From Deltaproteobacteria bacterium GWC2_65_14 (GTDB taxonomy: Bacteria; Desulfobacterota; Deferrimicrobia; Deferrimicrobiales; Deferrimicrobiaceae), in assembly GCA_001797615.1 (NCBI GenBank), contig MGPV01000017.1, forward strand, positions 50,019 through 114,018: a stretch of DNA of 64,000 nt, in the 5' to 3' direction. The position numbers and the translations under genes are program-made. Below the pieces are notes generated by a model that ran no database searches, was not told the DNA's origin, and worked only from the letters and a program-made list of their open reading frames with translations. Shown one piece after another: positions 8,634 through 20,128 of this stretch; within the stretch, counting starts at the first letter, position 1, and each line of letters begins with the position of its first letter.

Positions 8634-8729
8634 TGGCGGAAGCGTGAGGGAATCGAACCCCCCGGAGACATTGCTGCCTCCCGGCCGGATTTGAAGTCCG
8701 GGAGGGCCACCAGCGCCCTATCCGCTTCC
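8634..8729 (-). tRNA. selC: tRNA-Sec (selenocysteine tRNA, anticodon UCA).
   Basis: The reverse complement reads GGAAGCGG...CCGGACTTCAAATCCGG...GGTTCGATTCCC...CGCTTCCGCCA. The anticodon arm CUGGACUUCAAAUCCAG-like is identical in loop sequence to E. coli selC, with anticodon TCA. It has a long variable arm and a ~95-nt length with encoded CCA. Confidence 0.85.
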
Positions 8730-9744: not shown

Positions 9745-9819
9745 GGGCGCTTAACTCAGCGGTAGAGTGCCACCTTCACACGGTGGAAGTCACAGGTTCA
9801 AATCCTGTAGCGCCCACCA
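9745..9819 (+). tRNA. tRNA-Val (anticodon CAC).
   Basis: GGGCGCTTAACTCAGCGGTAGAGTGCCACCTTCACACGGTGGAAGTCACAGGTTCAAATCCTGTAGCGCCCACCA folds as a cloverleaf with a 7-bp acceptor stem, T-loop TTCAAAT, anticodon loop TTCACAC and encoded CCA. Confidence 0.9.
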
Positions 9820-9837: not shown

Positions 9838-9880
9838 CCTCAACCAGGCCTCCCGGTTTCCTTTTTTCCCGCCTGGGCCG
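9838..9880. terminator. Rho-independent terminator after tRNA-Val. It may act bidirectionally, because the convergent methyltransferase gene ends here.
   Basis: Perfect 10-bp stem CGGGAGGCCT / AGGCCTCCCG with a 5-nt loop, followed by GTTTCCTTTTTTCC. Confidence 0.6.
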
Positions 9881-10841
9881 TGACGATCCCCACCCCGGCG
9901 GGGTCCGGCCGCCGCGCGGAGACCTTCCGGAACCCGGCCGTGGAAAGCATCACCGCGATCTCCCCCTCCGTGTAGGATCTGCCCCCCTCGGTCGCCGCCA
10001 CCATGTGGACGGAGAAGAAGGCGGGGCCCGGTGGAGAGGTCTTCCCCTCGTCCAACAGAAACTCCTGCACCGCGACACGCCCCTTGGGCGCCATCGCCTG
10101 GCGCGCCCTCCGGAGAATTCGGATGCACTCCCGTTCGGAGAACGCGTGGAGGATCTGGGAGATCCAGACGAAGTCGTACGGCCCGCCGAGCGGGTCCTTC
10201 AGGAAATCCCCCGCCGCAATCTCCACCTCTCCGGATCTCCCCTTCTCCGACAGGATCCTTCGGGCGATCCGGACCGTCTCGGGCAGGTCGAACAGCGTCA
10301 CCTTCGCCCCGGGGTACCTTACCGCCCATTCGAGGGCGTAGGTCCCCGGGCCGCCTCCCAGGTCCAGGAGGCGCTCCCCCTCCCGCAGCGGGAACTCCCG
10401 CGCGACCTGCGCGGCCCGCTCCCGGGAGTTGTCCTCCATCCCGCGGATGAAGTTCTCCTGCCAGTTCTTCTCCGGGCCCGCTCTTTTCCTCCCCGCCCGG
10501 ATCTTTCTTTCCAGGTCGGTCCATTCTGGCCAGCAGTTACGGTGATGCAGCAGGATCGATCGCTTCGAGAGGGGGCCGTCCGTGAGATACCGGGCCGCGA
10601 GCTTCCCGTTTTCGTACTGCGCACCGTCGCGCTTCAGCAGGCCGACCGCTACCAGGGCGTTCAGGAGGATCGAGAGCCTTCGGGGATCGGCGGACACCGT
10701 TCGCGCGAGCCGGGAGGCGTCGGACGGGCCGGAGGCCAGGGCCGAAAAGACGCCGAGCCGCAGTCCGGTGAACAGGGCCATCGAGCGCTGGTAGCCGTGC
10801 GCGACCTCCATCAACTCCTCAAGCCTTTTCATCGAACCCAT
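9840..10841 (-). CDS. Class I SAM-dependent O-methyltransferase.
   Basis: 333 aa with an N-terminal dimerisation/winged-helix region and the SAM motif LLDLGGGPGTYA, as in the COMT/HIOMT-type O-MTase family. The 9783..11321 plus-strand ORF is an artefact. Confidence 0.75.
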   Translation of the reverse strand: MGSMKRLEELMEVAHGYQRSMALFTGLRLGVFSALASGPSDASRLARTVSADPRRLSILLNALVAVGLLKRDGAQYENGKLAARYLTDGPLSKRSILLHHRNCWPEWTDLERKIRAGRKRAGPEKNWQENFIRGMEDNSRERAAQVAREFPLREGERLLDLGGGPGTYALEWAVRYPGAKVTLFDLPETVRIARRILSEKGRSGEVEIAAGDFLKDPLGGPYDFVWISQILHAFSERECIRILRRARQAMAPKGRVAVQEFLLDEGKTSPPGPAFFSVHMVAATEGGRSYTEGEIAVMLSTAGFRKVSARRPDPAGVGIVTAQAGKKETGRPG

Positions 10842-12291
10842 CGGTGCCCCTCCCCCGCCGTTTTTCCAGCCGGAAGGTCCCCTCCGGCCCGTCCGTCACC
10901 TCGTACCCGGCCTCCCGGATCCCCTCCCGGAGGGCATCCGCCTCGCGGAACTTCCGCTCCTGCCGGAGCCGCCCGCGCCTCCTTGCGAGGTCGGCCACCG
11001 CCTCCGGAATCCCCTCCCGATCCACGGCGCCCGCCTCTTCCCTCGCGGCCTCCGCGGACCGGAGAAGTCCGACCCCCAGCACCGGGTCCCATTCCGCGGC
11101 GAGCTTGCGCAGCGTCCTCCCGGAAAGCCCGGCCCGCGCCGCCTCATGGACGACCCCGAGCGCCTTCGGGGTGTTCAGGTCGTCCCCGACCGCCTCCCGG
11201 AAGCGGCGCCGGAACTCCCCCTCCTCTCCCGGCGCGCCGCTCCCCGCGTCCCCCCCCCGGGCGAACGCCTCCCGAAGTCTTTCCAGCGCCGTCGCGGATG
11301 CCGCTTGCGCCTCCCAGGTGAAGTTCATCGGCGTCCGGTACTGGAGCGTCAGGCAATGATACCGGAAATCGGCCGGGGAGACCCCACGGGCTTCCAGGTC
11401 GTCGAGGGTGTGCTCGTTGCGCAGCGACTTGGACATCTTCCGCCCGTCGACCAGAAGGTGCGCCCCGTGTACCCAGAGGGCGGCGAACCGGCCGCCGGTG
11501 GCCGCCCTCGCCATCGCACGGGAGTTCTCGTGGTGCGGGAAGCGAAGGTCCGAGCCTCCCACGTGGATGTCGAATTCCGGTCCCAGGTACCTCACCGCCA
11601 TCGCCGCGCACTCGATGTGCCATCCGGGCCAGCCGCGGCCCCAGGGGCTCTCCCAGGAGAACTCCCGCCCGGGCTCCGCCGGAAGCCAGAGCGAGAAATC
11701 CTCCGGCCGTTTCTTGCGGAGATGGATCGCGGCGTCGGTCCGGCCGGCCGCCTCCCCTTCCCCCAGCAGGGCCCCGGAGAGCTCTCCGTACCCCGGCGCC
11801 TTCGTCACGTCGAGGTAGAGCCACCCCTTTTCCCCGTAGGTCGCCCCGCGGCGCTCCAGTTCCCGCGCCATCGCGATCATGTCGGGAACGTGGGCGGAGG
11901 CGCGGGGATAGAGGTCGGCGGGGAGGAAGCCCATCCTCCGGCAGTCCCGGAAGAACGCGCCGGTGAAGAAGGCCGCAATCTCCCCGGCCGACTTCCCGGC
12001 CGCGCGGGCGGCGGCGACGACCTTGTCCTCCGCCTCTTCGAGTCGCTCCTGCTGCATGTGCCCCATGTCGGTGACGTTCTGGACGGAAACGGTCCTGAGC
12101 CCGAAGAACCCGAGGGCCCGGACGAGCAGGTCGGTGAGCAGCCAGGTCCGGAGATTCCCGATGTGGACATACCGGTAGACGGTGGGTCCGCAGGTGTAGA
12201 TCCCCGCCCGCCCCGGTCTCATCGGAACGAACGGAACCTTCTTTCGCGAGCAGCTGTCGTAGAGAGCGATCAGCGCGGGCCTCCCGGGCAT
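10819..12291 (-). CDS. cysS: Cysteinyl-tRNA synthetase.
   Basis: Class I aaRS with IYTCGPTVYRYVHIGN (HIGH region) and KMSKSLRN (KMSKS), and a DALR-like C-terminal domain. Confidence 0.9.
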   Translation of the reverse strand: MPGRPALIALYDSCSRKKVPFVPMRPGRAGIYTCGPTVYRYVHIGNLRTWLLTDLLVRALGFFGLRTVSVQNVTDMGHMQQERLEEAEDKVVAAARAAGKSAGEIAAFFTGAFFRDCRRMGFLPADLYPRASAHVPDMIAMARELERRGATYGEKGWLYLDVTKAPGYGELSGALLGEGEAAGRTDAAIHLRKKRPEDFSLWLPAEPGREFSWESPWGRGWPGWHIECAAMAVRYLGPEFDIHVGGSDLRFPHHENSRAMARAATGGRFAALWVHGAHLLVDGRKMSKSLRNEHTLDDLEARGVSPADFRYHCLTLQYRTPMNFTWEAQAASATALERLREAFARGGDAGSGAPGEEGEFRRRFREAVGDDLNTPKALGVVHEAARAGLSGRTLRKLAAEWDPVLGVGLLRSAEAAREEAGAVDREGIPEAVADLARRRGRLRQERKFREADALREGIREAGYEVTDGPEGTFRLEKRRGRGTDGFDEKA

Positions 12292-12364
12292 CCGGGTCGT
12301 GCAGGTCGGCCCGGGATCCCCGGGAGCCCCCCGGGTGCGTCCCGCATTCCTCCCCGGAGCGTCC

Positions 12365-12562
12365 CTACATCTCCTGGTTGACCTCCCGGTCGATCTCCTC
12401 CTGCAGGAGCTTCACATGCTTTTTCTCCTCCTCCACGAGGAAGAGGAACATCTCCCGGATGGACGGCTCCTTGGCCGTCTTCGCGAACGCCGTGTAGTCT
12501 TTTACCGCCGCCTTCTCGCGCCCCAGCGCCATCCGGATCACATCGAGCGGGTTCGACGTCAT
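12365..12562 (-). CDS. Small (~65 aa) ferritin/rubrerythrin-like half-domain protein.
   Basis: The C-terminal part of the 12365..12853 ORF begins at MTSNPLDV. It carries a single E...EExxH-type motif (FLVEEEKKHVKLL) and is paralogous to the 14682..14879 protein. The upstream ORF portion is Gly/Arg-rich junk. Confidence 0.5.
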   Translation of the reverse strand: MTSNPLDVIRMALGREKAAVKDYTAFAKTAKEPSIREMFLFLVEEEKKHVKLLQEEIDREVNQEM

Positions 12563-12600
12563 GGTCCCTCCCTGGCTGCTTCCGGCCCGCGGGCCGGGGA

Positions 12601-13050
12601 TCAGACTCTGTTCAGCAATTCCTCGATCCGCGCGAGGTGGGTCCTCTCCTCCTCCCGCAGCTCGGAAAGCAGGCCCTTCGTGTTCCTGTCCTCGACCGCC
12701 TCCGCCGCCTTCCCGTAGAACTCCACGGCATGTTCTTCCGCCCTCTTCGCCACGGCAAGCCCCTTCCGGATCGCGTCGCTTTCCCCGGCCCCCTCCTCCT
12801 CCCGGGCGATCCGGTCCAGGTCGATCATGTAGGGGAGGAATCGGTGCTCCCACTTCGCCTCGTGCTTCGGGACCCCGAATTTCGCCGAGAGCTTCCGGAT
12901 ATGGCCCTCCTCCTCCCGGGCGAGGAAGTCGAAAAGGTCGCCCGCCGGCGACGTTCCGTGCAGGGCGGCCTGCCGTCCGTAGTACGCTCTCGCCCGCTCC
13001 TCGTGGGCGAGGGCGACCTGGAGGATCTCGATCTCGTTCAGGTCCAGCAT
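12601..13050 (-). CDS. Rubrerythrin-like / ferritin-like diiron four-helix-bundle protein.
   Basis: 149 aa with two ExxH-type metal-binding motifs (AREEEGHIRKL and LREEERTHLARI) spaced as in the rubrerythrin/ferritin-like superfamily. Confidence 0.68.
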   Translation of the reverse strand: MLDLNEIEILQVALAHEERARAYYGRQAALHGTSPAGDLFDFLAREEEGHIRKLSAKFGVPKHEAKWEHRFLPYMIDLDRIAREEEGAGESDAIRKGLAVAKRAEEHAVEFYGKAAEAVEDRNTKGLLSELREEERTHLARIEELLNRV

Positions 13051-13066
13051 CGGTCCTTCCTCCTTC

Positions 13067-13450
13067 TCAGGCGGGATGCTTCTTCGCGTAGTCGTCCAGG
13101 GCGGCCTTGACCGCCTCCTCGGCCATGACCGAGCAGTGGATCTTCACCGCGGGGAGCCCGTCGAGGGCGTCGGCGACATGCCGGTTCGTGATCGCCCGCG
13201 CCTCTTCGACCGTCTTCCCCTTCACCATCTCCGTCAGCATCGAGCTGGAGGCGATGGCCGCCCCGCACCCGAAGGTGCGGAACTTCGCGTCCACGATCGT
13301 CTCTCCCTCGACCTTGAGGTAGAGCCGCATCATGTCGCCGCAGGCCGGGTTCCCCACTTCGCCGACGCCGCTGGCATCCTCGATCTCGCCGACGTTCCTC
13401 GGGTTCATGAAGTGATCCATCACCTTCGCGCTGTACGGTCCGCTCGCCAT
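13067..13450 (-). CDS. iscU: Fe-S cluster assembly scaffold IscU/NifU.
   Basis: 127 aa with [25 protein letters not shown] and [11 protein letters not shown], the three conserved Cys plus the LPPVK-like region. Confidence 0.9.
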
Positions 13451-13456
13451 GTCCGC

Positions 13457-14668
13457 CTATCCTCCCTGGAGGATCTTCTTCTGGTAGTCGAGATATGTGG
13501 GAGACATCGCCCACAGCTTCCGGACGATTCCGGGAAGCGCCGACAGCACCGCGTCCACCTCCTGCCCGGTGCTTCCCTTCCCCATGCTGAAGGTGATCGA
13601 CCCGGTGCAGATGTCCGAGGGGACCCCGATCGCCCGCAAGACGTGGGAGGCGATCAGGTCCTCCTCGTCCTGCCCTTTCAGGTTCGAGCTGCAGGCCGAT
13701 CCCGAGGCGGCCATCACCCCGTGGAGGTTGAGCAAAAGCAGCAGCGATTCCCCTTCCGCATACTCCACCCAGAAGCTCACATGCCCGGGGAGCCGCACCG
13801 AAGGGTGGCCGGTGAAGTGGAGGTGCTCCACGGAGGCGGCGATCCCGTCGTGCAGGCGCTTTCCCAGGCTTCGGAGATGCCGGTCCCGCTCCGCCATCTC
13901 CCGGGCGGCGATGGAGGCCGCCGCTCCCATCCCCACGATCCCGGGGACGTTCTCGGTGCCGGCGCGCAGCCCCATCTCCTGGAACCCGCCGTCCAGGAGC
14001 GACTCGAGGCGGACCCCCTCCCGGACGTAGAGCGCCCCCGCACCCTTCGGCCCGTAGAAATTGTGGGCCGACAGGGTCGCCAGGTCGGCCCCGATCCGGT
14101 TCACGTCGACCGGAATGTGGCCGGCCGAGGCGGTCGCGTCGGTGTGGAACAGCACCCCCCTCTCCCGCGCGATCCTCCCGATCTCCTCCACCGGCTCCAC
14201 CGTGCCGATCTCCGCGTTCGCGTGCACGACGGACACCAGGATCGTGTCCGGCCGGATCGCCCGGCGGACCTCCCCGGGGTCCACCCGTCCGTCCCGGTCG
14301 ACCCTCACGGTGGTGACCTCGAAGCCGCGGTTGCGCAGCGGGATCAGGGCGTTCAGCACCGAGAAATGCTCCACCTCGGATACGACGAGGTGCTTCCCCT
14401 TCGCCGCGTGGGCGCCGGCAACCCCTTTCACCGCGAGGTTGTTCGACTCGGTGGCCCCGGAGGTGAACAGGATTTCTCCGGGCTTCGCGCCGACCAGGGA
14501 GGCCACCTGGCTCCTGGCCGCGTCCAACCCCTTGAGGGCCGCCTGCCCCTGATCGTGGATGTGGGAAGAGGGGTTGCCGTACCGCTCCGTGAAGTACGGC
14601 ATCATCGCCTCCAGGACCTTCGGGTCCAGGGGGGTGGTGGAGATATGGTCGAAGAAGATCCGGCCCAC
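13457..14668 (-). CDS. iscS: Cysteine desulfurase (IscS/NifS, class V aminotransferase).
   Basis: 403 aa with IFFDHISTTPLDPKVLEAM, a PLP-lysine region and the active-site loop SGSACSS. Confidence 0.9.
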   Translation of the reverse strand: MGRIFFDHISTTPLDPKVLEAMMPYFTERYGNPSSHIHDQGQAALKGLDAARSQVASLVGAKPGEILFTSGATESNNLAVKGVAGAHAAKGKHLVVSEVEHFSVLNALIPLRNRGFEVTTVRVDRDGRVDPGEVRRAIRPDTILVSVVHANAEIGTVEPVEEIGRIARERGVLFHTDATASAGHIPVDVNRIGADLATLSAHNFYGPKGAGALYVREGVRLESLLDGGFQEMGLRAGTENVPGIVGMGAAASIAAREMAERDRHLRSLGKRLHDGIAASVEHLHFTGHPSVRLPGHVSFWVEYAEGESLLLLLNLHGVMAASGSACSSNLKGQDEEDLIASHVLRAIGVPSDICTGSITFSMGKGSTGQEVDAVLSALPGIVRKLWAMSPTYLDYQKKILQGG

Positions 14669-14681
14669 CGTCGCTCCCCGG

Positions 14682-14879
14682 CTACTCCTGGATCCTGAAC
14701 TCGGCCATCTTGTCGCGGATCAGCTTGATGTGACCCTTTTCCTCCTCCGCGAGGTAGGCGAACATCTTCCGCACGGCCGGGTTCTGCGTCTGTTCCGCCG
14801 CCTTCCTGTACTCCCCGAAATTCTCCATCTCGTGCCGGAGCGCCAGGCGCAGTACCTCTTCCATGGTCCATTCCGCCAT
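14682..14879 (-). CDS. Small (~66 aa) ferritin/rubrerythrin-like half-domain protein, paralog of 12365..12562.
   Basis: The C-terminal part of the 14682..15056 ORF starts at MAEWTMEEVL. It has the motif YLAEEEKGHIKLI and aligns with the other small protein (xMFxxLxEEEKxHxKL). Confidence 0.5.
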   Translation of the reverse strand: MAEWTMEEVLRLALRHEMENFGEYRKAAEQTQNPAVRKMFAYLAEEEKGHIKLIRDKMAEFRIQE

Positions 14880-15015
14880 CGTCTTCCTCCCCGTGCCGTT
14901 TTCCGGAACGGCATGCGGTCCGCCGTCCGGACGCCGCCCCTTGTGTAGGATTAGGAGGCGGGCCGTTCCGTTTCCCTTTATAATTCTATCTGGAAACGAT
15001 CGCAAGGAGTCGCGC

Positions 15016-15555
15016 ATGAAAAAATCCTCGGTTCTCCCGGCCGCGGTGCTCGTCATCGCGCTTGCGGGCGCCGTCGCCTACTACCTGGGAAGCTCCGCAC
15101 CGAGGTCCCCCTCGGGGAGCTCTCCCGCCGGGCGCACCGTCGCCGGGGTGCAGGCGCCGGAGTTCTCCCTGGTGGACATCAGCGGGAACCGTGTCTCCTT
15201 TTCCCGGTTCCTCGGGAAGCCCACCGTGATCAACTTCTTCGCCACCTGGTGCCCCCCCTGCCGGGAGGAGATTCCGGGATTTGTCGAGGTCCACCGGAAA
15301 TACCGGGACCAGGGGTTCGAGCTGGTCGGCATCTCCCTCGACACCGATACGCGGGGAAACCTTCCGGGGTTCATCACGAGCCACCGGATCGAGTACCGGA
15401 TCCTCTTCGGAGACCTCACCACCACGCGGGCCTACGGAGGGGTCACCTCCATCCCGACCACCTTCTTCATCGGGAAGGACGGAACGATCCGGTATGTCCA
15501 TGTCGGCTATATCGACCAGGAAGCGTTCGACCGGGAGGTCCGGAAGCTGCTGTGA
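15016..15555 (+). CDS. TlpA/ResA-like thiol-disulfide oxidoreductase (thioredoxin fold, membrane-anchored).
   Basis: Signal/anchor MKKSSVLPAAVLVIALAGAVAYY and the active site FFATWCPPCREE, a redoxin-family layout. The ATG is at 15016, inside the longer GTG-extended track ORF. Confidence 0.8.
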   Translation: MKKSSVLPAAVLVIALAGAVAYYLGSSAPRSPSGSSPAGRTVAGVQAPEFSLVDISGNRVSFSRFLGKPTVINFFATWCPPCREEIPGFVEVHRKYRDQGFELVGISLDTDTRGNLPGFITSHRIEYRILFGDLTTTRAYGGVTSIPTTFFIGKDGTIRYVHVGYIDQEAFDREVRKLL

Positions 15556-15653
15556 CCCGCGAGTCCCAAAAATGCGGAAACCCGGAACGGTGTGCTTCCG
15601 GGTTCCCGCCAGGTTCGGCGAGCGGACCGGCCCCGGAGGACCGTTCCGCGGAC

Positions 15654-15824
15654 TCAGGCTGGAATGCAGGCCGCCGTCGGGCAGACTCCGGCGCAGTTCG
15701 CGCAATCGGTGCACTTGCCCGCATCGATGCCGTAGATCGGATCGCCCTCCGAAATGCACTGTTCCGGGCATTCCGGAAGGCAGGCCCCGCAGGCGATGCA
15801 TTCCTCCGTGATCTTGTACGCCAT
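15654..15824 (-). CDS. 2x[4Fe-4S] ferredoxin (56 aa).
   Basis: I translated this by hand: MAYKITEECIACGACLPECPEQCISEGDPIYGIDAGKCTDCANCAGVCPTAACIPA. It has two CxxCxxCxxxCP motifs and a GGAGGAAT RBS. It is below the track length cutoff. Confidence 0.7.
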   Translation of the reverse strand: MAYKITEECIACGACLPECPEQCISEGDPIYGIDAGKCTDCANCAGVCPTAACIPA

Positions 15825-15846
15825 GATTCCTCCTGTATGGGTTGAT

Positions 15847-16065
15847 TTATACCGACTCCACCCGCTCCACCGCGGGGATCTCCTCCTTCAGCAACGCCTC
15901 GATGCCGTTCTTCAGGGTGATCGACGCCATGGGGCAGCCGGAGCATGCGCCGGTCAGTCGCACCTTCACCACGCCCCCGTCCACGTCGACGAGTTCCACG
16001 TCTCCCCCGTCGGCCTGCAGGGCCGGGCGAATCTTTCCGAGCACTTTTTCGACTTCTGGCTTCAT
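15847..16065 (-). CDS. NifU-like (Nfu-type) Fe-S cluster carrier domain protein.
   Basis: The probable start is MKPEVEK. It has the conserved CxxC in [15 protein letters not shown]. Confidence 0.78.
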
Positions 16066-16147
16066 TCCCTTTTCCCTCCCCGGGGGCAATCTATCCCCCT
16101 CCCTGTTATAGGATGTGCGTTCCGGCCCCCCGGTTCCTTGACCGGGA

Positions 16148-16786
16148 TCAATCCGCCGAAAGGATTTCGTACCCCGCCTTTTTCAGGGCCGCCTTGAGCA
16201 CCTTGTAGTTCTTCGTCTCGAGCCGCAGGATCAGGGTCTTCATCCCCGGCTCCGCGTGGGCGGCTGTCGCCACGGAGACGATCTTGGTTTCGAAGTCCTT
16301 GAGCAGTTTCGTCACCTCGAACAGCATGCCGATCCTGTCGGGCAGCCCCAGCTCGACCCGGTAGCCCGGCCCGCTTACCCCCATCGACTCGATGAAGGCG
16401 TCCAGGATGTCGGTCTCGGTGAGGATCCCGACCAACTTCCCCCCCTCCACGACCGGGAGGCACCCGATCTTCTTCTCCCGCATGATCAGCGCCGCCTCCT
16501 CGATCGGGGCGGACGGGGATATCGTGTAGGGGCGCCGGGTCATGATCTGCCGGGCCTTGACCTTGTCGAGCAGGTAATAGATCTCGCGGATTTCCAGGGA
16601 GGTCGCGGAGGAAGGGGAGGCCTGCTTGATGTCCCGCTCCGAGAGGACCCCGACCAGTTTCTCCCCGTCCTTCAGGACGCAGAGGTGGCGGATCCCCCGC
16701 TCCTTCATGATGTCCATCGCCCTTCGCATCGAGTCGTTCTCGTCCACGACCACCGGGTTCCGCGCCATCCGCCTCGCAACGATCAT
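16148..16786 (-). CDS. CBS-pair plus ACT domain protein.
   Basis: The real start [17 protein letters not shown] has an AGGAGG RBS. It has two CBS motifs (..[23 protein letters not shown].. and ..[21 protein letters not shown]..) and a C-terminal ACT-like region. The upstream part of the track ORF is Gly-rich junk. Confidence 0.75.
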
Positions 16787-16827: not shown

Positions 16828-17424
16828 TCAGGTGAAGTAGCGCCGCACGAGATCGATGGCGCTTATCAGATCCGAGGCCGTCACCAGAAAGAAGGAGGCC
16901 CCCTCCTTTTCCCAGTACACGAACGACATCCCCTCCTTCTCTCCGGAGAGGAAACCGGAGCCGGAGAAGAGGTCCTCCTCGTCCTGGCCCCCCGCCCGGG
17001 GCCGGTTCCGGAGCACGAGAAGGAGATACGAATTCCCGAATCCCGAGAAGCGGACGGCGGCGGCCGTCTGCCTCCCCACCTTCTCCCGCCGGACGGAGGA
17101 GACGGAGAACACCCCCTCCTCCCGGGGAAGCAACAGCTTCGCCCCCGTCCACTCATTCACCTTCGCCTCGGCGTCGGCGGGAGCGAGGGGGGGCGCTCCC
17201 TCCTTCTCGAGGTTCGCGGCCCCGTAGAGCCGCATCCCCTCCCGCGCCAGGAGGTCGACCCGGGCATGCCCCGTGTCCCGGGAGATGCGCACGGCGAAGA
17301 CGGCGACCGTCATGGTCAGGAAGAGCAGGACGACGGCCAGGCGCGGCCGATCGCTCACCAGGCCGAACAGGGAGGTCGTCTCGGATTTCCCCCGGTCCGG
17401 GCGTTCACCGGTCGATCCATTCAT
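16828..17424 (-). CDS. Hypothetical membrane-anchored protein.
   Basis: 198 aa with one N-terminal TM helix (LAVVLLFLTMTVAVFAV) and a C-terminal soluble domain; no recognisable motif. It could be an anti-sigma factor or periplasmic regulator, but that is only a guess. Confidence 0.45.
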   Translation of the reverse strand: MNGSTGERPDRGKSETTSLFGLVSDRPRLAVVLLFLTMTVAVFAVRISRDTGHARVDLLAREGMRLYGAANLEKEGAPPLAPADAEAKVNEWTGAKLLLPREEGVFSVSSVRREKVGRQTAAAVRFSGFGNSYLLLVLRNRPRAGGQDEEDLFSGSGFLSGEKEGMSFVYWEKEGASFFLVTASDLISAIDLVRRYFT

Positions 17425-17474: not shown

Positions 17475-19346
17475 CTACCAGTCCACGATTTCCACACCGA
17501 ACCGCCGCATCAACTCCCGGGTCTTGGTGTGGATCTTCCCGCGGACGAGGATGGCCGCCCGGATCTTCCGCCCGCCGAGGTATTCCGCCGAGGTGAGAAA
17601 GGTCCCCGTGACCCGGACCTCGAACCCCGCGCCCTCCCCTCCGAAGAGGAGAAACCGCTCCCGATCCTCGTGGGGGGTCCCGGAGACTCCGAGGATCCGC
17701 CGGAAGATCGATCTCCCCCCCTCCTCCTTCCCCACGGAGAAGATCTCGTACCCCGAGTCCCGTACGATCGACCGCAGGGGAGGGGACATCTTTCCCGCGT
17801 CGACCACGTACCGCTTCCCCCCCGCATCGAAGATCCTCTCCGGCTGGACGGTGAGCTGGAAAGCACCTCCCTTTCCCCCGATCGTGATCTTCTCCTCCGA
17901 GGCGATGTGAAGCCCCAGAAAGGAGAGGGTGTAGTCGACCGCCGCCAGCCCCCCTTGCGGCACCGCCTCCGGGGCGGCTTCCGGCTCCGTCTCCTCGGCG
18001 TCGATCCCGACCAGGAATCCCTCACTGGCGGAGCGGTCCACGGCAAACGGCAGGACCCGGATGCCGATGTGCCCCGCGTACCGGAGGACCGCGGAGAGAT
18101 CGTCCCCCGGCTTCTCGGAGACCTCCTTGAGCAGGAAGACCTCGCCGTTGAGCAGGCTCTGCGGCGTCTTCAGCACGATCCGGTCGGCGGGGACGGCGAT
18201 GGCGAGCTGCTCCCCGATGACCAGCGGATGCTCCTTCCCTTCCCTGGCGGAATGGTACCCGGCGGCCTTCAGGAACCGGTCCAGCATCTCCAGCGGACCG
18301 GAGCTTCCCCCCATCGAAACCACCCGGTAGTTCTTCCAGGTCTCCGTGATCAGCGCCCGCACGTCGGCGGGGAGCCCGTCGTGAAAGTCGACCAGCAGGT
18401 CCACCCCCGTGGAAAGGCGGACGACCGGATAATCCCCGAGGTCGAGGACGACCTCCCCGCCGGTCGGGATGGGAAGATACAGGGTGCCCCGGTCGATCCA
18501 CTTCTCCCCCAGTCCGGCGGCCAGGTCGGAGAGCAGACCCCGGTACACCGGCTTCGCCGGGGCGGGGGGAACCTCCTTCGCCGGCACTCCGGCCGTGAAG
18601 GCGATCAGGGATCCCGCTTCCGGGGTCGGCAGCGAAGGCGACACGAGCTGGGCCTCCGGCTTCGCCGCCGGGATCGCCTCCTGGCCCGGCTGCGGCGGGA
18701 CATCCCGCGTCAGCGCCACCGCCGAAGCCGGCGCCTCCTCCGGTTTCCTCTCCGCAGGTTCTGCGGGGGGCGCCGCGGCCGCCAGCGGGCCGGGGAATGG
18801 AGCGGCTGCGACGGAAGGGGCTTCCGCGAAATACTCGGCGGTGGGAATCAGGATCGTTGTTCCGGCATAGATCCGGTCCACGTCGCGGACCGGCTCGTTC
18901 AGCTCCATCACGGCCGAGAGGTACCGCTCCCTGTCCTCCCGCGGGACTCCGCGCGCGGCGAGGATCTTCAGCAGCGCGTCTCCGCGGACGATCCGGTGGG
19001 GGACCGCTTTCCCGGATTCCACCATCCGCCGGACCTTCGCGGCCGCCCCGGAGGGGATCAGGATCTTCTGCCCGGGCGAAAGCTTCCCGGGATCCCGCAC
19101 CTCCGGGTTCGCCCGCCGGAATTCCCGGAGCGCCGCGGAATAGTTCGACGGAAAGAGCGGGGAGATTCCCTCCAGGATCTTCCAGAGGTTCTCCCCCTTC
19201 GAGACGGTGTGGACCTCGTAGAAGCTCTTCTTTCCCTCCGAGGTCTCCGCGAAGATCCTCTTCTCCAGGAAGATCTTCGGCCTCTCCTCCGCCTGTACCG
19301 CCGCCACGACAAGGCAAAGCGCGGCGACGACCGCCCCTCTTCTCAA
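17475..19346 (-). CDS. Secreted LysM-like / peptidoglycan-binding repeat protein with a Pro/Ala-rich linker and a C-terminal domain of unknown function.
   Basis: The probable TTG start is at 19346 (LRRGAVVAALCLVVAAVQA signal peptide, GGGAGG RBS). Two LysM-like segments (YEVHTVSKGENLWKIL and HRIVRGDALLKILAARG) are followed by a P/A/E-rich linker and a ~330-aa C-terminal domain. The N-terminal 160 aa of the track ORF is Gly/Arg junk. Confidence 0.55.
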   Translation of the reverse strand: MRRGAVVAALCLVVAAVQAEERPKIFLEKRIFAETSEGKKSFYEVHTVSKGENLWKILEGISPLFPSNYSAALREFRRANPEVRDPGKLSPGQKILIPSGAAAKVRRMVESGKAVPHRIVRGDALLKILAARGVPREDRERYLSAVMELNEPVRDVDRIYAGTTILIPTAEYFAEAPSVAAAPFPGPLAAAAPPAEPAERKPEEAPASAVALTRDVPPQPGQEAIPAAKPEAQLVSPSLPTPEAGSLIAFTAGVPAKEVPPAPAKPVYRGLLSDLAAGLGEKWIDRGTLYLPIPTGGEVVLDLGDYPVVRLSTGVDLLVDFHDGLPADVRALITETWKNYRVVSMGGSSGPLEMLDRFLKAAGYHSAREGKEHPLVIGEQLAIAVPADRIVLKTPQSLLNGEVFLLKEVSEKPGDDLSAVLRYAGHIGIRVLPFAVDRSASEGFLVGIDAEETEPEAAPEAVPQGGLAAVDYTLSFLGLHIASEEKITIGGKGGAFQLTVQPERIFDAGGKRYVVDAGKMSPPLRSIVRDSGYEIFSVGKEEGGRSIFRRILGVSGTPHEDRERFLLFGGEGAGFEVRVTGTFLTSAEYLGGRKIRAAILVRGKIHTKTRELMRRFGVEIVDW

Positions 19347-20128
19347 TATCCCTCCCCAGTGAACGTCGACACTCCGGCGTTCACCCCGATCGTCTTGTAC
19401 ATCTTCGGGCTCTCCCACGGCTCGTCCAGGATTCCGTCGTGGATGGCCCAGCTCCTCCCGCGCACCGTCGCCCCCTGCCCCGGCATCCGGAAGGGGGTGC
19501 TCCCGTCGAGCCTCCCGTGCAGCAGTCCGCCCGGACGGAACTCCCGGTCGGTCCGGACCATCCCCTCTTTCCCGGTAAGGTACTGGAACCCGCTCCTCTC
19601 GTACAGGATCGCGCTGGTGTAGCCCAGCGGCTCCAGGAAGAAGAACCGGTGCCCCAGCTTCCCGAAGAAGGCTTCCCAGCTGGCGACCAGGTCCGGCATG
19701 GCGCGCAGACCGCGGCGGACCTGTCCGGGCGCCAGGCCGTCCCGCATCGCCCGGATCTCCTCGGGGAGGTTCCTCAGGGCGGTCCCGAAGTAGGTGTCCC
19801 GCCCCCCCTCGTCCACGTCCACGTCGTACCGTCCGCTCTCCGGATCGTTCACGATGACGAACGAGATCTCCATCTGCCCGTAGGGCGTGCTCGACACGTC
19901 GAGGAAGTAGACGGCGTCCCGGTCCTCCGGGGTCCGGTGGAATTCCACCTGGAAGAAGGGCATCCCTTCCGGGCAGGTGAAGGAGACGCACCGGTTTCCT
20001 CCCGGCCCCCGGAACGTCTCCGGGTCTACCGAGAACCTCTCCAGGAGCCGGCGCGGGACCAGGGTGGACAGAAGCGCCTCACGCTCCCCCTCCGGCAGGG
20101 CGTTGATCTCGTACGCCGTAACGGGCAA
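19343..20128 (-). CDS. Hypothetical protein (261 aa), co-operonic with the acyl-CoA ligase; possibly an acyltransferase-like fold.
   Basis: The ORF has normal codon usage and is tightly packed, 9 nt after the ligase stop and overlapping the downstream start. I found no confident motif. Confidence 0.5.
   Translation of the reverse strand: MPVTAYEINALPEGEREALLSTLVPRRLLERFSVDPETFRGPGGNRCVSFTCPEGMPFFQVEFHRTPEDRDAVYFLDVSSTPYGQMEISFVIVNDPESGRYDVDVDEGGRDTYFGTALRNLPEEIRAMRDGLAPGQVRRGLRAMPDLVASWEAFFGKLGHRFFFLEPLGYTSAILYERSGFQYLTGKEGMVRTDREFRPGGLLHGRLDGSTPFRMPGQGATVRGRSWAIHDGILDEPWESPKMYKTIGVNAGVSTFTGEGY

Follow-up and report, generated by a model that had tools for sequence, protein, structure and literature searches.

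Why should two very small ferritin-like proteins be encoded on either side of a cysteine desulfurase and its scaffold? The question is raised by a tight operon on the minus strand (10819-14879) of a 64,000-nucleotide (nt) stretch of contig MGPV01000017.1 (positions 50,019 to 114,018 of the forward strand) from Deltaproteobacteria bacterium GWC2_65_14. We refer to this whole stretch as the window, and positions are those of the window. The operon encodes, in order, a half-erythrin of 65 amino acids (small B), a NifS-type cysteine desulfurase, a NifU-type iron-sulfur (Fe-S) scaffold, a full-length erythrin of 149 amino acids, a second 65-amino-acid half-erythrin (small A) and a cysteinyl-tRNA synthetase (CysS). 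A and B are genuine genes and not pseudogene fragments, and they bracket nifS and nifU in all complete related loci that we collected. Judged from their sequences and gene context, they are probably accessory iron-handling proteins of the NifS-NifU machinery. The iron source is the least settled step of Fe-S cluster assembly, and these two easily expressed proteins of 7.6-7.8 kDa are concrete candidates for iron delivery, cluster repair or oxidant protection.

The first part of the answer comes from the relatives. A scan of one genome per species, together with look-ups of individual contigs, gave loci from ~40 genomes of the candidate phylum Deferrimicrobiota (MBNT15), and these loci were re-annotated with the window proteins. 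The complete region is spanned by 33 of these loci; the remaining loci are cut by contig ends. The order B-nifS-nifU-(erythrin)-A was found in 33/33 complete loci, with B always upstream of nifS and A always downstream of nifU, and it is retained where A and B are only 43-47% identical to the window copies (L034, L049, L052, L069). B-type proteins were found in Deferrimicrobiota only. The ~150-amino-acid erythrin between nifU and A is present in 18 of the 33 loci and absent from the other 15, all of which keep both A and B. Therefore, the constant core is B-nifS-nifU-A and the 149-amino-acid gene is optional. The initial annotation of the window, which was made from the DNA letters alone, had read the gene order and the single ExxH motif of each small protein correctly (open reading frames (ORFs), Pfam, NCBIfam), and this order recurs in the related genomes. 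Its 'rubrerythrin-like' gene is indeed present at that place in the window, but it is dispensable. Spacing is tight throughout. In the window (G+C content 64-71%), the intergenic gaps from B through cysS are 13, 6, 16, 38 and 73 nt, and the medians over the loci lie within 6-42 nt, with 16 nt (B-nifS), 6 nt (nifS-nifU), 19 nt (nifU-erythrin), 40 nt (erythrin-A) and 15 nt (A-cysS). The cysS gene follows A in 31 loci and is not at that position in L025, L027, L029 and L030.

Small B (14682..14879, minus strand) is the first gene of the operon, with an ATG start at 14879 behind the ribosome-binding site (RBS) GGAGG and a stop codon at 14682-14684. An end coordinate of 15056 had been given to this region at first. 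That position is the start of the longest ORF around B, whereas homologues and the RBS place the true start at 14879. Small A (12365..12562, minus strand) is the last di-iron gene, directly upstream of cysS; it has an ATG start at 12562, the RBS GGAGGG and a stop codon at 12365-12367, and this stop codon is where the region as first annotated begins. Both proteins have 65 amino acids and an isoelectric point (pI) of 5.4-5.7. Homologues form 89 clusters for B, nearly all of 65 amino acids, and 129 clusters for A, of 65-66 amino acids, and start and stop positions as well as length are fixed across these >200 clusters. Where they are named in the databases, it is as 'ferritin family protein' or 'rubrerythrin', and Candidatus Deferrimicrobiaceae is the main source; a protein of 'Deltaproteobacteria bacterium GWC2_65_14' is 100% identical to B. 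The median pairwise ratio of non-synonymous to synonymous substitutions (dN/dS) was ~0.24 for A and ~0.22 for B, compared with ~0.10 for nifU. The values are approximate: they are Nei-Gojobori medians that include pairs with a dS as high as 2.5, the genome has 67% GC, and the A set contains some same-length outgroup sequences. A and B are paralogues, with 37% identity over 51 residues in BLASTP (E = 6e-13) and a profile-profile match of 98.8% probability in hhalign (E = 1e-16), which agrees with the mutual alignment first seen by the initial annotation. That annotation had also named two ways in which its interpretation could fail, namely that the small ORFs might be unconserved in syntenic relatives or might be decayed rubrerythrin fragments. 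Neither is the case, as A and B occur in every complete related locus with fixed length, dN/dS of ~0.22-0.24 and intact ligands in 200 of 201 sequences.

What kind of proteins are they? Both pass the Pfam model Rubrerythrin (PF02915; cut-off 22.8 bits), A with 30.7 bits over profile positions 1-54 and B with 33.4 bits over positions 1-58 of 137, which is half of the domain. The 149-amino-acid protein (30.1 bits) matches positions 1-136; unlike A and B, it has both E...ExxH half-sites in a single chain and makes up a whole four-helix bundle. The half-site architecture that had been proposed for them thus holds, since the cut-off is passed over half of the profile only. AlphaFold2 predicted a two-helix hairpin for A (helices 5-29 and 33-64; predicted local distance difference test (pLDDT) score 94.0) as well as for B (helices 6-30 and 34-60; pLDDT 96.4). 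The best Foldseek matches were EncB chains, with a template modelling (TM) score of 0.82-0.89 and a root-mean-square deviation of 0.3-0.5 Å for A, a TM score of 0.83-0.88 for B, and 30-38% identity. NE0167, the encapsulated ferritins (EncFtn) of Pyrococcus furiosus and Haliangium ochraceum, and Rru_A0973 followed, and the Foldseek E-values are weak (~5e-3) given the very small query. When the family profiles were compared with PDB sequences, Myxococcus xanthus EncB came first with E = 2e-8 (A) and 5e-8 (B), followed by P. furiosus EncFtn, the full-length erythrin PF1190 (2FZF), symerythrin and designed 'due ferri' peptides.

The residues that would bind metal are kept almost without exception. 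Invariant are E16, Y23, E46 and H49 in A and E17, Y24, E47 and H50 in B, and the motif E-x6-Y-x22-E-x2-H is present in 117/117 full-length A sequences and 83/84 B sequences. The spacing of these residues (Glu, Tyr at +7, Glu at +30, His at +33) is the same as that of the ferroxidase centre Glu32/Tyr39/Glu62/His65 of Rhodospirillum rubrum EncFtn (residue list in PMC11202242). In EncFtn the di-iron site forms between two antiparallel chains that contribute identical ligands (PMC11202242, PMC11126975), and formation of the site-bearing dimer interface depends on iron (PMC11202242). The dimer site of the small proteins is predicted to be of the symmetric 4-Glu/2-His type of bacterioferritin and EncFtn. 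Three residues after the helix-1 Glu (+3), where the rubrerythrin site has its extra Glu (E94/E97 in the rubrerythrin of Desulfovibrio vulgaris), A has an invariant Ala19 and B an invariant Asn20. The rubrerythrin site has seven ligands (5 Glu and 2 His), which allow a Glu/His switch (PMC6616624), and the missing +3 Glu argues against such a seven-ligand peroxidase site in A and B. Cys is absent from A, B and the 149-amino-acid protein. An identity of A and B as rubrerythrins proper, of the peroxidase type, was rejected, since they lack the seventh-ligand Glu, a rubredoxin domain and Cys, and score 13.9 bits with the NCBIfam model RuberyRbr against a cut-off of 200.

The C-termini of the two families differ. 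A-type proteins end in ...(N/Y)-(Q/R)-E-M in Deferrimicrobiota (...QEM in the window, 12368-12379, minus strand), with E64 and M65 invariant in the alignment, whereas B-type proteins have the ending ...V-K-E. The C-terminal E-M of A-type proteins may be an extra metal ligand or a docking motif.

The full-length erythrin (12601..13050, minus strand; two ExxH motifs; Pfam Rubrerythrin) has no rubredoxin domain. Its best NCBIfam model is the N-terminal erythrin domain of MbfA (9e-10, far under the cut-off) and its nearest PDB entry is P. furiosus 2fzf (E = 6e-5). We found no evidence for the idea that A and B mimic its two halves, as both resemble the N-terminal half (31-41% identity). A combined profile of A and B, searched against 1.84 billion representative proteins, gave 4383 matches; nearly all of the top 150 are full-length erythrins of 140-250 amino acids with two matched stretches, and ~8 of these 150 are single-hairpin proteins of 65-68 amino acids. 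Free half-erythrins are therefore a small minority.

The partners of A and B are also of a particular type. The desulfurase (403 amino acids, 13457..14668, minus strand) starts with GTG and belongs to the class V pyridoxal phosphate-dependent enzymes (Pfam Aminotran_5, 1e-76). Its best NCBIfam model is TIGR03402 with 449 bits, which is under the cut-off of 530.75 of this NifS model, and the IscS models gave 376-387 bits. The scaffold (127 amino acids, 13067..13450, minus strand) consists of a single NifU_N domain (Pfam, 1e-52) and passes TIGR03419, NifU_clost, with 209.7 bits (cut-off 187.9). IscS and IscU models scored lower than the NifS and NifU models, and the operon contains no HscBA, IscA or IscR, and thus no chaperones or A-type carrier. 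What was first called an iscS-iscU operon is therefore a minimal two-gene system of the NifS/NifU type and not a canonical isc system.

Outside the phylum, A-like proteins of 68-82 amino acids occur in Zixibacteria and Ignavibacteria, where they share a C-terminal ...x-E-M ending. In 13/15 of these loci the small gene lies directly beside a full-length erythrin gene of 159-182 amino acids on the same strand, like the erythrin-A pair in the window. Two arrangements recur. Six loci from Zixibacteria and an Ignavibacteria metagenome-assembled genome (L043 5259-7286, L037, L038, L042, L044, L060) have the order erythrin (166 amino acids), small protein (81 amino acids) and a further gene that starts where the small gene ends. 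This further gene was identified with Pfam in L043 only, as nadA (1.5e-93). NadA is quinolinate synthase, a [4Fe-4S] enzyme with an oxygen-labile cluster, and the coincidence of gene end and gene start suggests translational coupling of a di-iron half-protein to it. In the second arrangement, from Zixibacteria and Ignavibacteriaceae (L047 5983-6714, L056 5616-6336, L063 5989-6723, L035, L036), the small gene (68-75 amino acids) precedes an erythrin of 159-163 amino acids; in L047, L056 and L063 the pair is flanked by two ORFs, a divergent one upstream on the opposite strand and another one downstream, both with an alanine racemase N-terminal domain in L047 (Pfam). In locus L040 (5540-6195) an A-like half-erythrin directly follows an IscU-like ORF of 132 amino acids that is 40% identical to the window NifU over 96 residues and seems to lack the usual cluster-ligand Cys residues (GDIRRGD for GNPACGD, FGAYEA for FGCGAA). 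Two Spirochaetota loci carry a related 156-amino-acid erythrin. In L066 (2401-8893) it follows nifS, nifU and nfu (tblastn) among ORFs that resemble TusA, DsrE, an Rrf2 regulator, ferritin, a PerR-type regulator and a flavodiiron protein, and in L061 (4794-7505) it stands with nfu and ORFs that resemble ferritin, PerR and rubrerythrin. Read in this way, from sequence resemblance, the Spirochaetota blocks would join genes for Fe-S assembly, iron storage and oxidative stress.

How could A and B serve NifS and NifU? We tentatively favour, at slightly less than even confidence, that they dimerise into a labile di-iron site which would buffer iron or donate it to NifU. As stand-alone hairpins, A and B would each give one helix-1 Glu, the helix-2 ExxH and a nearby Tyr. 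Two hairpins (A2, B2 or A/B) would then pack into a four-helix bundle, and the interface would build the symmetric 4-Glu/2-His di-iron site. Produced from the same transcript as the minimal NifS-NifU pair, these dimers could capture Fe(II) in the labile interface site and either buffer it or pass it on, to NifU or to clusters that have been damaged; a comparable role has been proposed for the unrelated RIC/YtfE. If the bound iron reacted with O2 or H2O2, protection would come as a by-product. We infer dimerisation, iron binding, contact with NifS or NifU and iron donation, and for dimerisation and the di-iron site we do so by homology to EncB and EncFtn.

Several observations favour a role as iron donor or buffer. 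Firstly, small proteins that are co-transcribed with housekeeping assembly genes normally take part in assembly. Secondly, the sulfur donor (NifS) and the scaffold (NifU) are already encoded in the cluster, Nfu is a likely carrier and the ferredoxin a likely donor of electrons, which leaves the iron donor as the sole generic role still vacant. Thirdly, formation of the EncFtn interface depends on iron (PMC11202242), and a site of this kind would thus be labile, which favours donation. Fourthly, A-like genes are also linked to nadA and to the IscU-like ORF of L040. Lastly, RIC/YtfE is a functional precedent: this di-iron four-helix bundle supplies Fe-S assembly with iron and makes contact with both the ISC and the SUF machinery (PMC3989283, PMC8117158, PMC12720416).

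Other observations weigh against iron donation. The function of RIC/YtfE is itself disputed, as it was also described as a nitrite reductase (PMC9052748), and the oligomeric state and metal binding of A and B are deduced from homology only. Beyond the phylum, the usual companion of an A-like protein is a full-length erythrin and not an Fe-S assembly gene, so the basic function of the family is not tied to NifS-NifU. Among characterised proteins, the closest relatives store iron by oxidising Fe(II) to Fe(III), which is the opposite of what a scaffold needs. Furthermore, the setting of the Spirochaetota erythrin, with nfu on one side and ORFs resembling ferritin, PerR, rubrerythrin and a flavodiiron protein on the other, speaks for a role in oxidative stress.

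This leads to the alternative that survives best, namely that A/B dimers, with or without the 149-amino-acid erythrin, are local oxidant scavengers. They would be erythrin-type peroxidases or oxidases, reduced by the neighbouring 2x[4Fe-4S] ferredoxin, that clear H2O2 and O2 around nascent NifU clusters. Both A and B pass the Pfam Rubrerythrin cut-off, and erythrins and rubrerythrins are classed as non-haem peroxidases, of which RbrA protects nitrogenase (PMC6616624). The ferredoxin gene is conserved near the operon, the small genes of Zixibacteria adjoin nadA, and the related erythrin of L066 and L061 lies beside the ORFs resembling oxidative-stress proteins and ferritin listed above. The way of life of the host supports scavenging as well. 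Members of MBNT15/Deferrimicrobiota, predicted to live as facultative anaerobes, have oxidases of the aa3, cbb3 and bd types as well as many multihaem cytochromes for dissimilatory Fe(III) reduction, hence a risk of Fenton chemistry (PMC9386147). These organisms handle large iron fluxes at oxic-anoxic interfaces, and the initial label 'anaerobe' is right as to anaerobic capacity but not in the strict sense, since the organisms are facultative (PMC9386147). Against scavenging stand the absence of the seven-ligand set with the extra Glu for the Glu/His switch, the absence of a rubredoxin domain and of Cys, the location of the genes with housekeeping assembly genes and not in a stress regulon, and the fact that the nearest solved relatives are ferroxidases and not peroxidases. 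We consider scavenging as the principal function possible but on the doubtful side; donor and scavenger roles are not mutually exclusive. The initial annotation had put forward both, as an oxidant-protected assembly module or as iron delivery to IscU, and these two stay the leading hypotheses.

If the pairing with full-length erythrins is what matters, the A-type half protein could be a subunit or partner of the neighbouring two-domain erythrin, by capping or in hetero-oligomers, and its position in the nifSU operon would be a lineage-specific accident. The 13 of 15 Zixibacteria and Ignavibacteria loci with the small gene beside a same-strand erythrin of 159-182 amino acids fit this explanation, and so do the window and 17 other complete loci, in which the erythrin is immediately upstream of A. 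However, the 15 complete Deferrimicrobiota loci without erythrin keep A and B beside nifS-nifU, B always adjoins nifS and never an erythrin, and the synteny survives deep divergence, which makes a mere partnership with the erythrin unlikely.

It also seems decidedly unlikely that A and B are metal-sensing regulators or adaptors of NifS-NifU that tune sulfur transfer to iron availability, as proposed for IscX and CyaY. IscX is an acidic iron-binding protein of 66 amino acids encoded in isc operons, and A and B are likewise short, acidic and helical, with genes that flank nifS and nifU. Pfam and NCBIfam profile searches gave no relationship of A or B to IscX or frataxin, however, and the fully conserved ligand set of the ferroxidase type suggests more than sensing.

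The best sequence and structure matches, EncB and EncFtn, would allow a further explanation, in which A and B are orphan encapsulin cargo or a free ferroxidase ring for iron storage, with EncB-like decamers loading an encapsulin that is encoded elsewhere. The initial annotation had noted the likeness to encapsulated ferritins together with the lack of an encapsulin nearby, and both points stand in the NCBIfam, PDB profile and Foldseek searches. The ordered core of EncB in the crystal (59-68 residues) is of similar size to A and B, and some encapsulin cargo genes of M. xanthus are unlinked to the shell gene. The best NCBIfam models are encapsulin cargo models, but the scores are far under their cut-offs (for A, NF058678 EncB 36.7 vs 210, NF058679 EncB_fam 32.3 vs 90 and TIGR04535 19.6 vs 125; B is similar). 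No encapsulin gene was found within ~5-6 kb at any locus with called genes, nor among the window ORFs scanned with Pfam, and the unscanned window ORFs of encapsulin-like size look like housekeeping genes from their N-termini. The targeting-peptide pattern L(F)-x-V(I)-x-x-L(I) occurs in the last 14 residues of 0/201 full-length sequences, and helix 2 extends to residue 64 in A and to residue 60 in B, each of 65 residues, so that the chain ends at the end of the helix or within five residues of it (AlphaFold2). Neither family matches the EncFtn entry-site triad E31/E34/W38 (definition in bioRxiv 10.1101/785121), with R15, a variable residue 18 and D/E22 in A and H/L/Q16, E/D/Q19 and E23 in B. 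Because both the targeting peptide and the entry site are missing and the family scores stay below threshold, membership in the encapsulated-ferritin family was rejected. A and B resemble encapsulated ferritins without belonging to that family, and a role as cargo or storage ring is very unlikely. The weakest explanation, that A and B are spurious ORFs or remnants of a decayed full-length rubrerythrin, draws on the shortness of the proteins and their match to half a Pfam domain each, and it is almost certainly wrong: fixed length, starts and stops, RBSs, purifying selection, intact ligands and confident predicted folds speak against it, the products of a fission would adjoin whereas A and B are separated by nifS-nifU, and an origin as pseudogenes or by gene fission is ruled out by conservation, selection and gene order.

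Besides the B-nifS-nifU-A core, much of its surroundings is conserved. The cysS gene (490 amino acids, 10819..12291, minus strand; Pfam tRNA-synt_1e, 5.5e-80) closes the operon. Upstream and separately transcribed, at the same position in nearly all related loci, are the genes for a 56-amino-acid 2x[4Fe-4S] ferredoxin (15654-15824, minus strand; Pfam Fer4) and an Nfu-type protein consisting of the NifU C-terminal domain (15847-16089, minus strand; Pfam NifU, 3.6e-31). A terminator-like hairpin lies on their operon side at 15609-15574. Further upstream on the minus strand, the Pfam scan placed a CBS-ACT protein with the ferredoxin and Nfu genes, and it too is conserved in the relatives. Divergent from the operon, a TlpA/AhpC-TSA-type thiol-disulfide oxidoreductase with a signal peptide is encoded on the plus strand (15016-15555), a position kept across the phylum. 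Two more genes are kept upstream of the CBS-ACT, Nfu and ferredoxin genes, one for a 198-amino-acid protein (16828-17424, minus strand) without Pfam match and one for a large protein (17475-19991, minus strand; an 838-amino-acid ORF in the window) whose homologue in relatives has a faint LysM match only. On the other side, a family-2 O-methyltransferase with a dimerisation domain (9840-10841, minus strand) follows cysS, or A directly where cysS is absent, in nearly all related loci. Just past it are tRNA-Sec (anticodon TCA; Rfam 74.4 bits; 8634-8729, minus strand) and tRNA-Val(CAC) (9745-9819, plus strand); the organism therefore uses selenocysteine.

A putative promoter and leader start of the B-nifS-nifU operon was read by eye at 14949..15005 on the minus strand, with a -35 box TTGCGA (15005-15000), a 17-nt spacer, a -10 box TATAAA (14982-14977) and the element GAAAC-N18-ATC (14974-14949). 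GAAAC followed 22-23 nt later by ATC, and starting 2-4 nt after a TATAAT-like box, was found upstream of B in ~25/30 relatives (loci L004-L059). The element is retained in relatives with only 43-45% protein identity and unalignable flanking DNA, and it overlaps the promoter region of the divergent redoxin gene. The element could serve as an operator or mark a conserved 5' end of the operon mRNA. A scan of 10700-16200 for strict sigma-70 consensus promoters called none, no consistent hairpin was seen in the leader across the relatives, and the leader matched no Rfam family at the gathering threshold, the only Rfam matches of the window being tRNA-Sec and two tRNAs. As a marker for a regulon, GAAAC-N18-ATC was rejected, because it holds too little information (5 matches in the window vs 1.6 expected).

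What would follow from these proteins depends on their function. Half-ferritins were already known from encapsulin systems, including short forms without targeting peptide, and the proteins themselves are in the databases under generic names. When we searched the literature for half-erythrins encoded in Fe-S operons, or for two-helix ferritins that are not encapsulated, the discussion of short ferritin-like proteins without targeting peptide (s-FLPs) was all that came up. As far as these searches reached, three things are new: the minimal form of 65 amino acids without any of the accessories of encapsulin systems, the duplication into two paralogues that bracket nifS-nifU in a phylum-wide operon, and the recurrent pairing of half-length with full-length erythrins. 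Few known natural ferritin-like units are as small as A and B, which have about the size of the designed 'due ferri' peptides, and the two proteins show that the half-site architecture of encapsulated ferritins exists outside encapsulin systems, which bears on the origin of four-helix di-iron proteins from two-helix precursors. In a stricter form of our proposal, which we regard as rather unlikely, A and B would be the dedicated iron donor or ferrochaperone of a NifS-NifU system of the minimal iron-sulfur system (MIS) type, i.e. free two-helix proteins, possibly an obligate A/B heterodimer, that build a di-iron site on dimerising and pass Fe(II) to the scaffold. If this were true, the long-missing role of iron donor in the minimal Fe-S machinery would be filled, and A and B would represent, in living and non-encapsulated form, the two-helix ancestor that has been postulated for the ferritin-like superfamily. 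If they were ordinary peroxide scavengers, the finding would reduce to a lineage-specific operon arrangement.

In comparison with known systems, A and B are closest to the EncFtn/FLP-TP proteins (M. xanthus EncB 7S5C/7S5K, P. furiosus EncFtn 5N5E, Rru_A0973 5DA5), with which they share the two-helix hairpin with half a ferroxidase centre, the ligand spacing, ~30-38% identity to the EncB core and a TM score of 0.82-0.89. However, they have 65 amino acids, compared with 130-158 for EncC/EncB and ~100 structured residues for typical FLP-TPs. They lack the disordered tail, targeting peptide, entry-site triad and H4 helix, there is no encapsulin nearby and they are encoded inside a NifS-NifU operon. 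The s-FLP of Nitrosomonas europaea (NE0167, 3K6C) is also a half-ferritin with ExxH and no recognisable targeting peptide, and s-FLPs were at first thought to be non-encapsulated (PMC11202242). NE0167 differs in having 95 amino acids, extra helices and a decameric form, its similarity to A and B is marginal (E = 0.055-0.22) and no link to Fe-S assembly genes was described for it. With the erythrin/rubrerythrin family (PF02915, COG1633; PF1190 2FZF, symerythrin 3QHB, sulerythrin 1J30) A and B share the Pfam model, the B profile matches the first half of 2FZF with E = 2.6e-7, and two-repeat erythrins of 140-180 amino acids make up most of their nearest relatives among representative proteins, but erythrins are single-chain four-helix bundles, while A and B are half of one, without rubredoxin domain or seventh ligand. 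The likeness to RIC/YtfE is a functional analogy only. RIC/YtfE, too, is small and has a di-iron site in a helical bundle, and donation of iron to Fe-S assembly and repair has been reported for it, yet it is not homologous, being a single-chain bundle with different ligands that is encoded outside the assembly operon, and the Pfam and NCBIfam scans gave no match of A or B to a hemerythrin or ScdA_N family. Lastly, by gene content and profile scores, the pair of a class I NifS/IscS-like desulfurase and a single-domain scaffold is like the MIS in the sense of Garcia et al. (MisS/MisU), the NifS/NifU-like pairs of non-diazotrophs. The MIS was described as having no additional components, with electron donors that are unclear (PMC13066941, review). 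In contrast, the Deferrimicrobiota pair comes with two conserved di-iron genes in its operon throughout the phylum.

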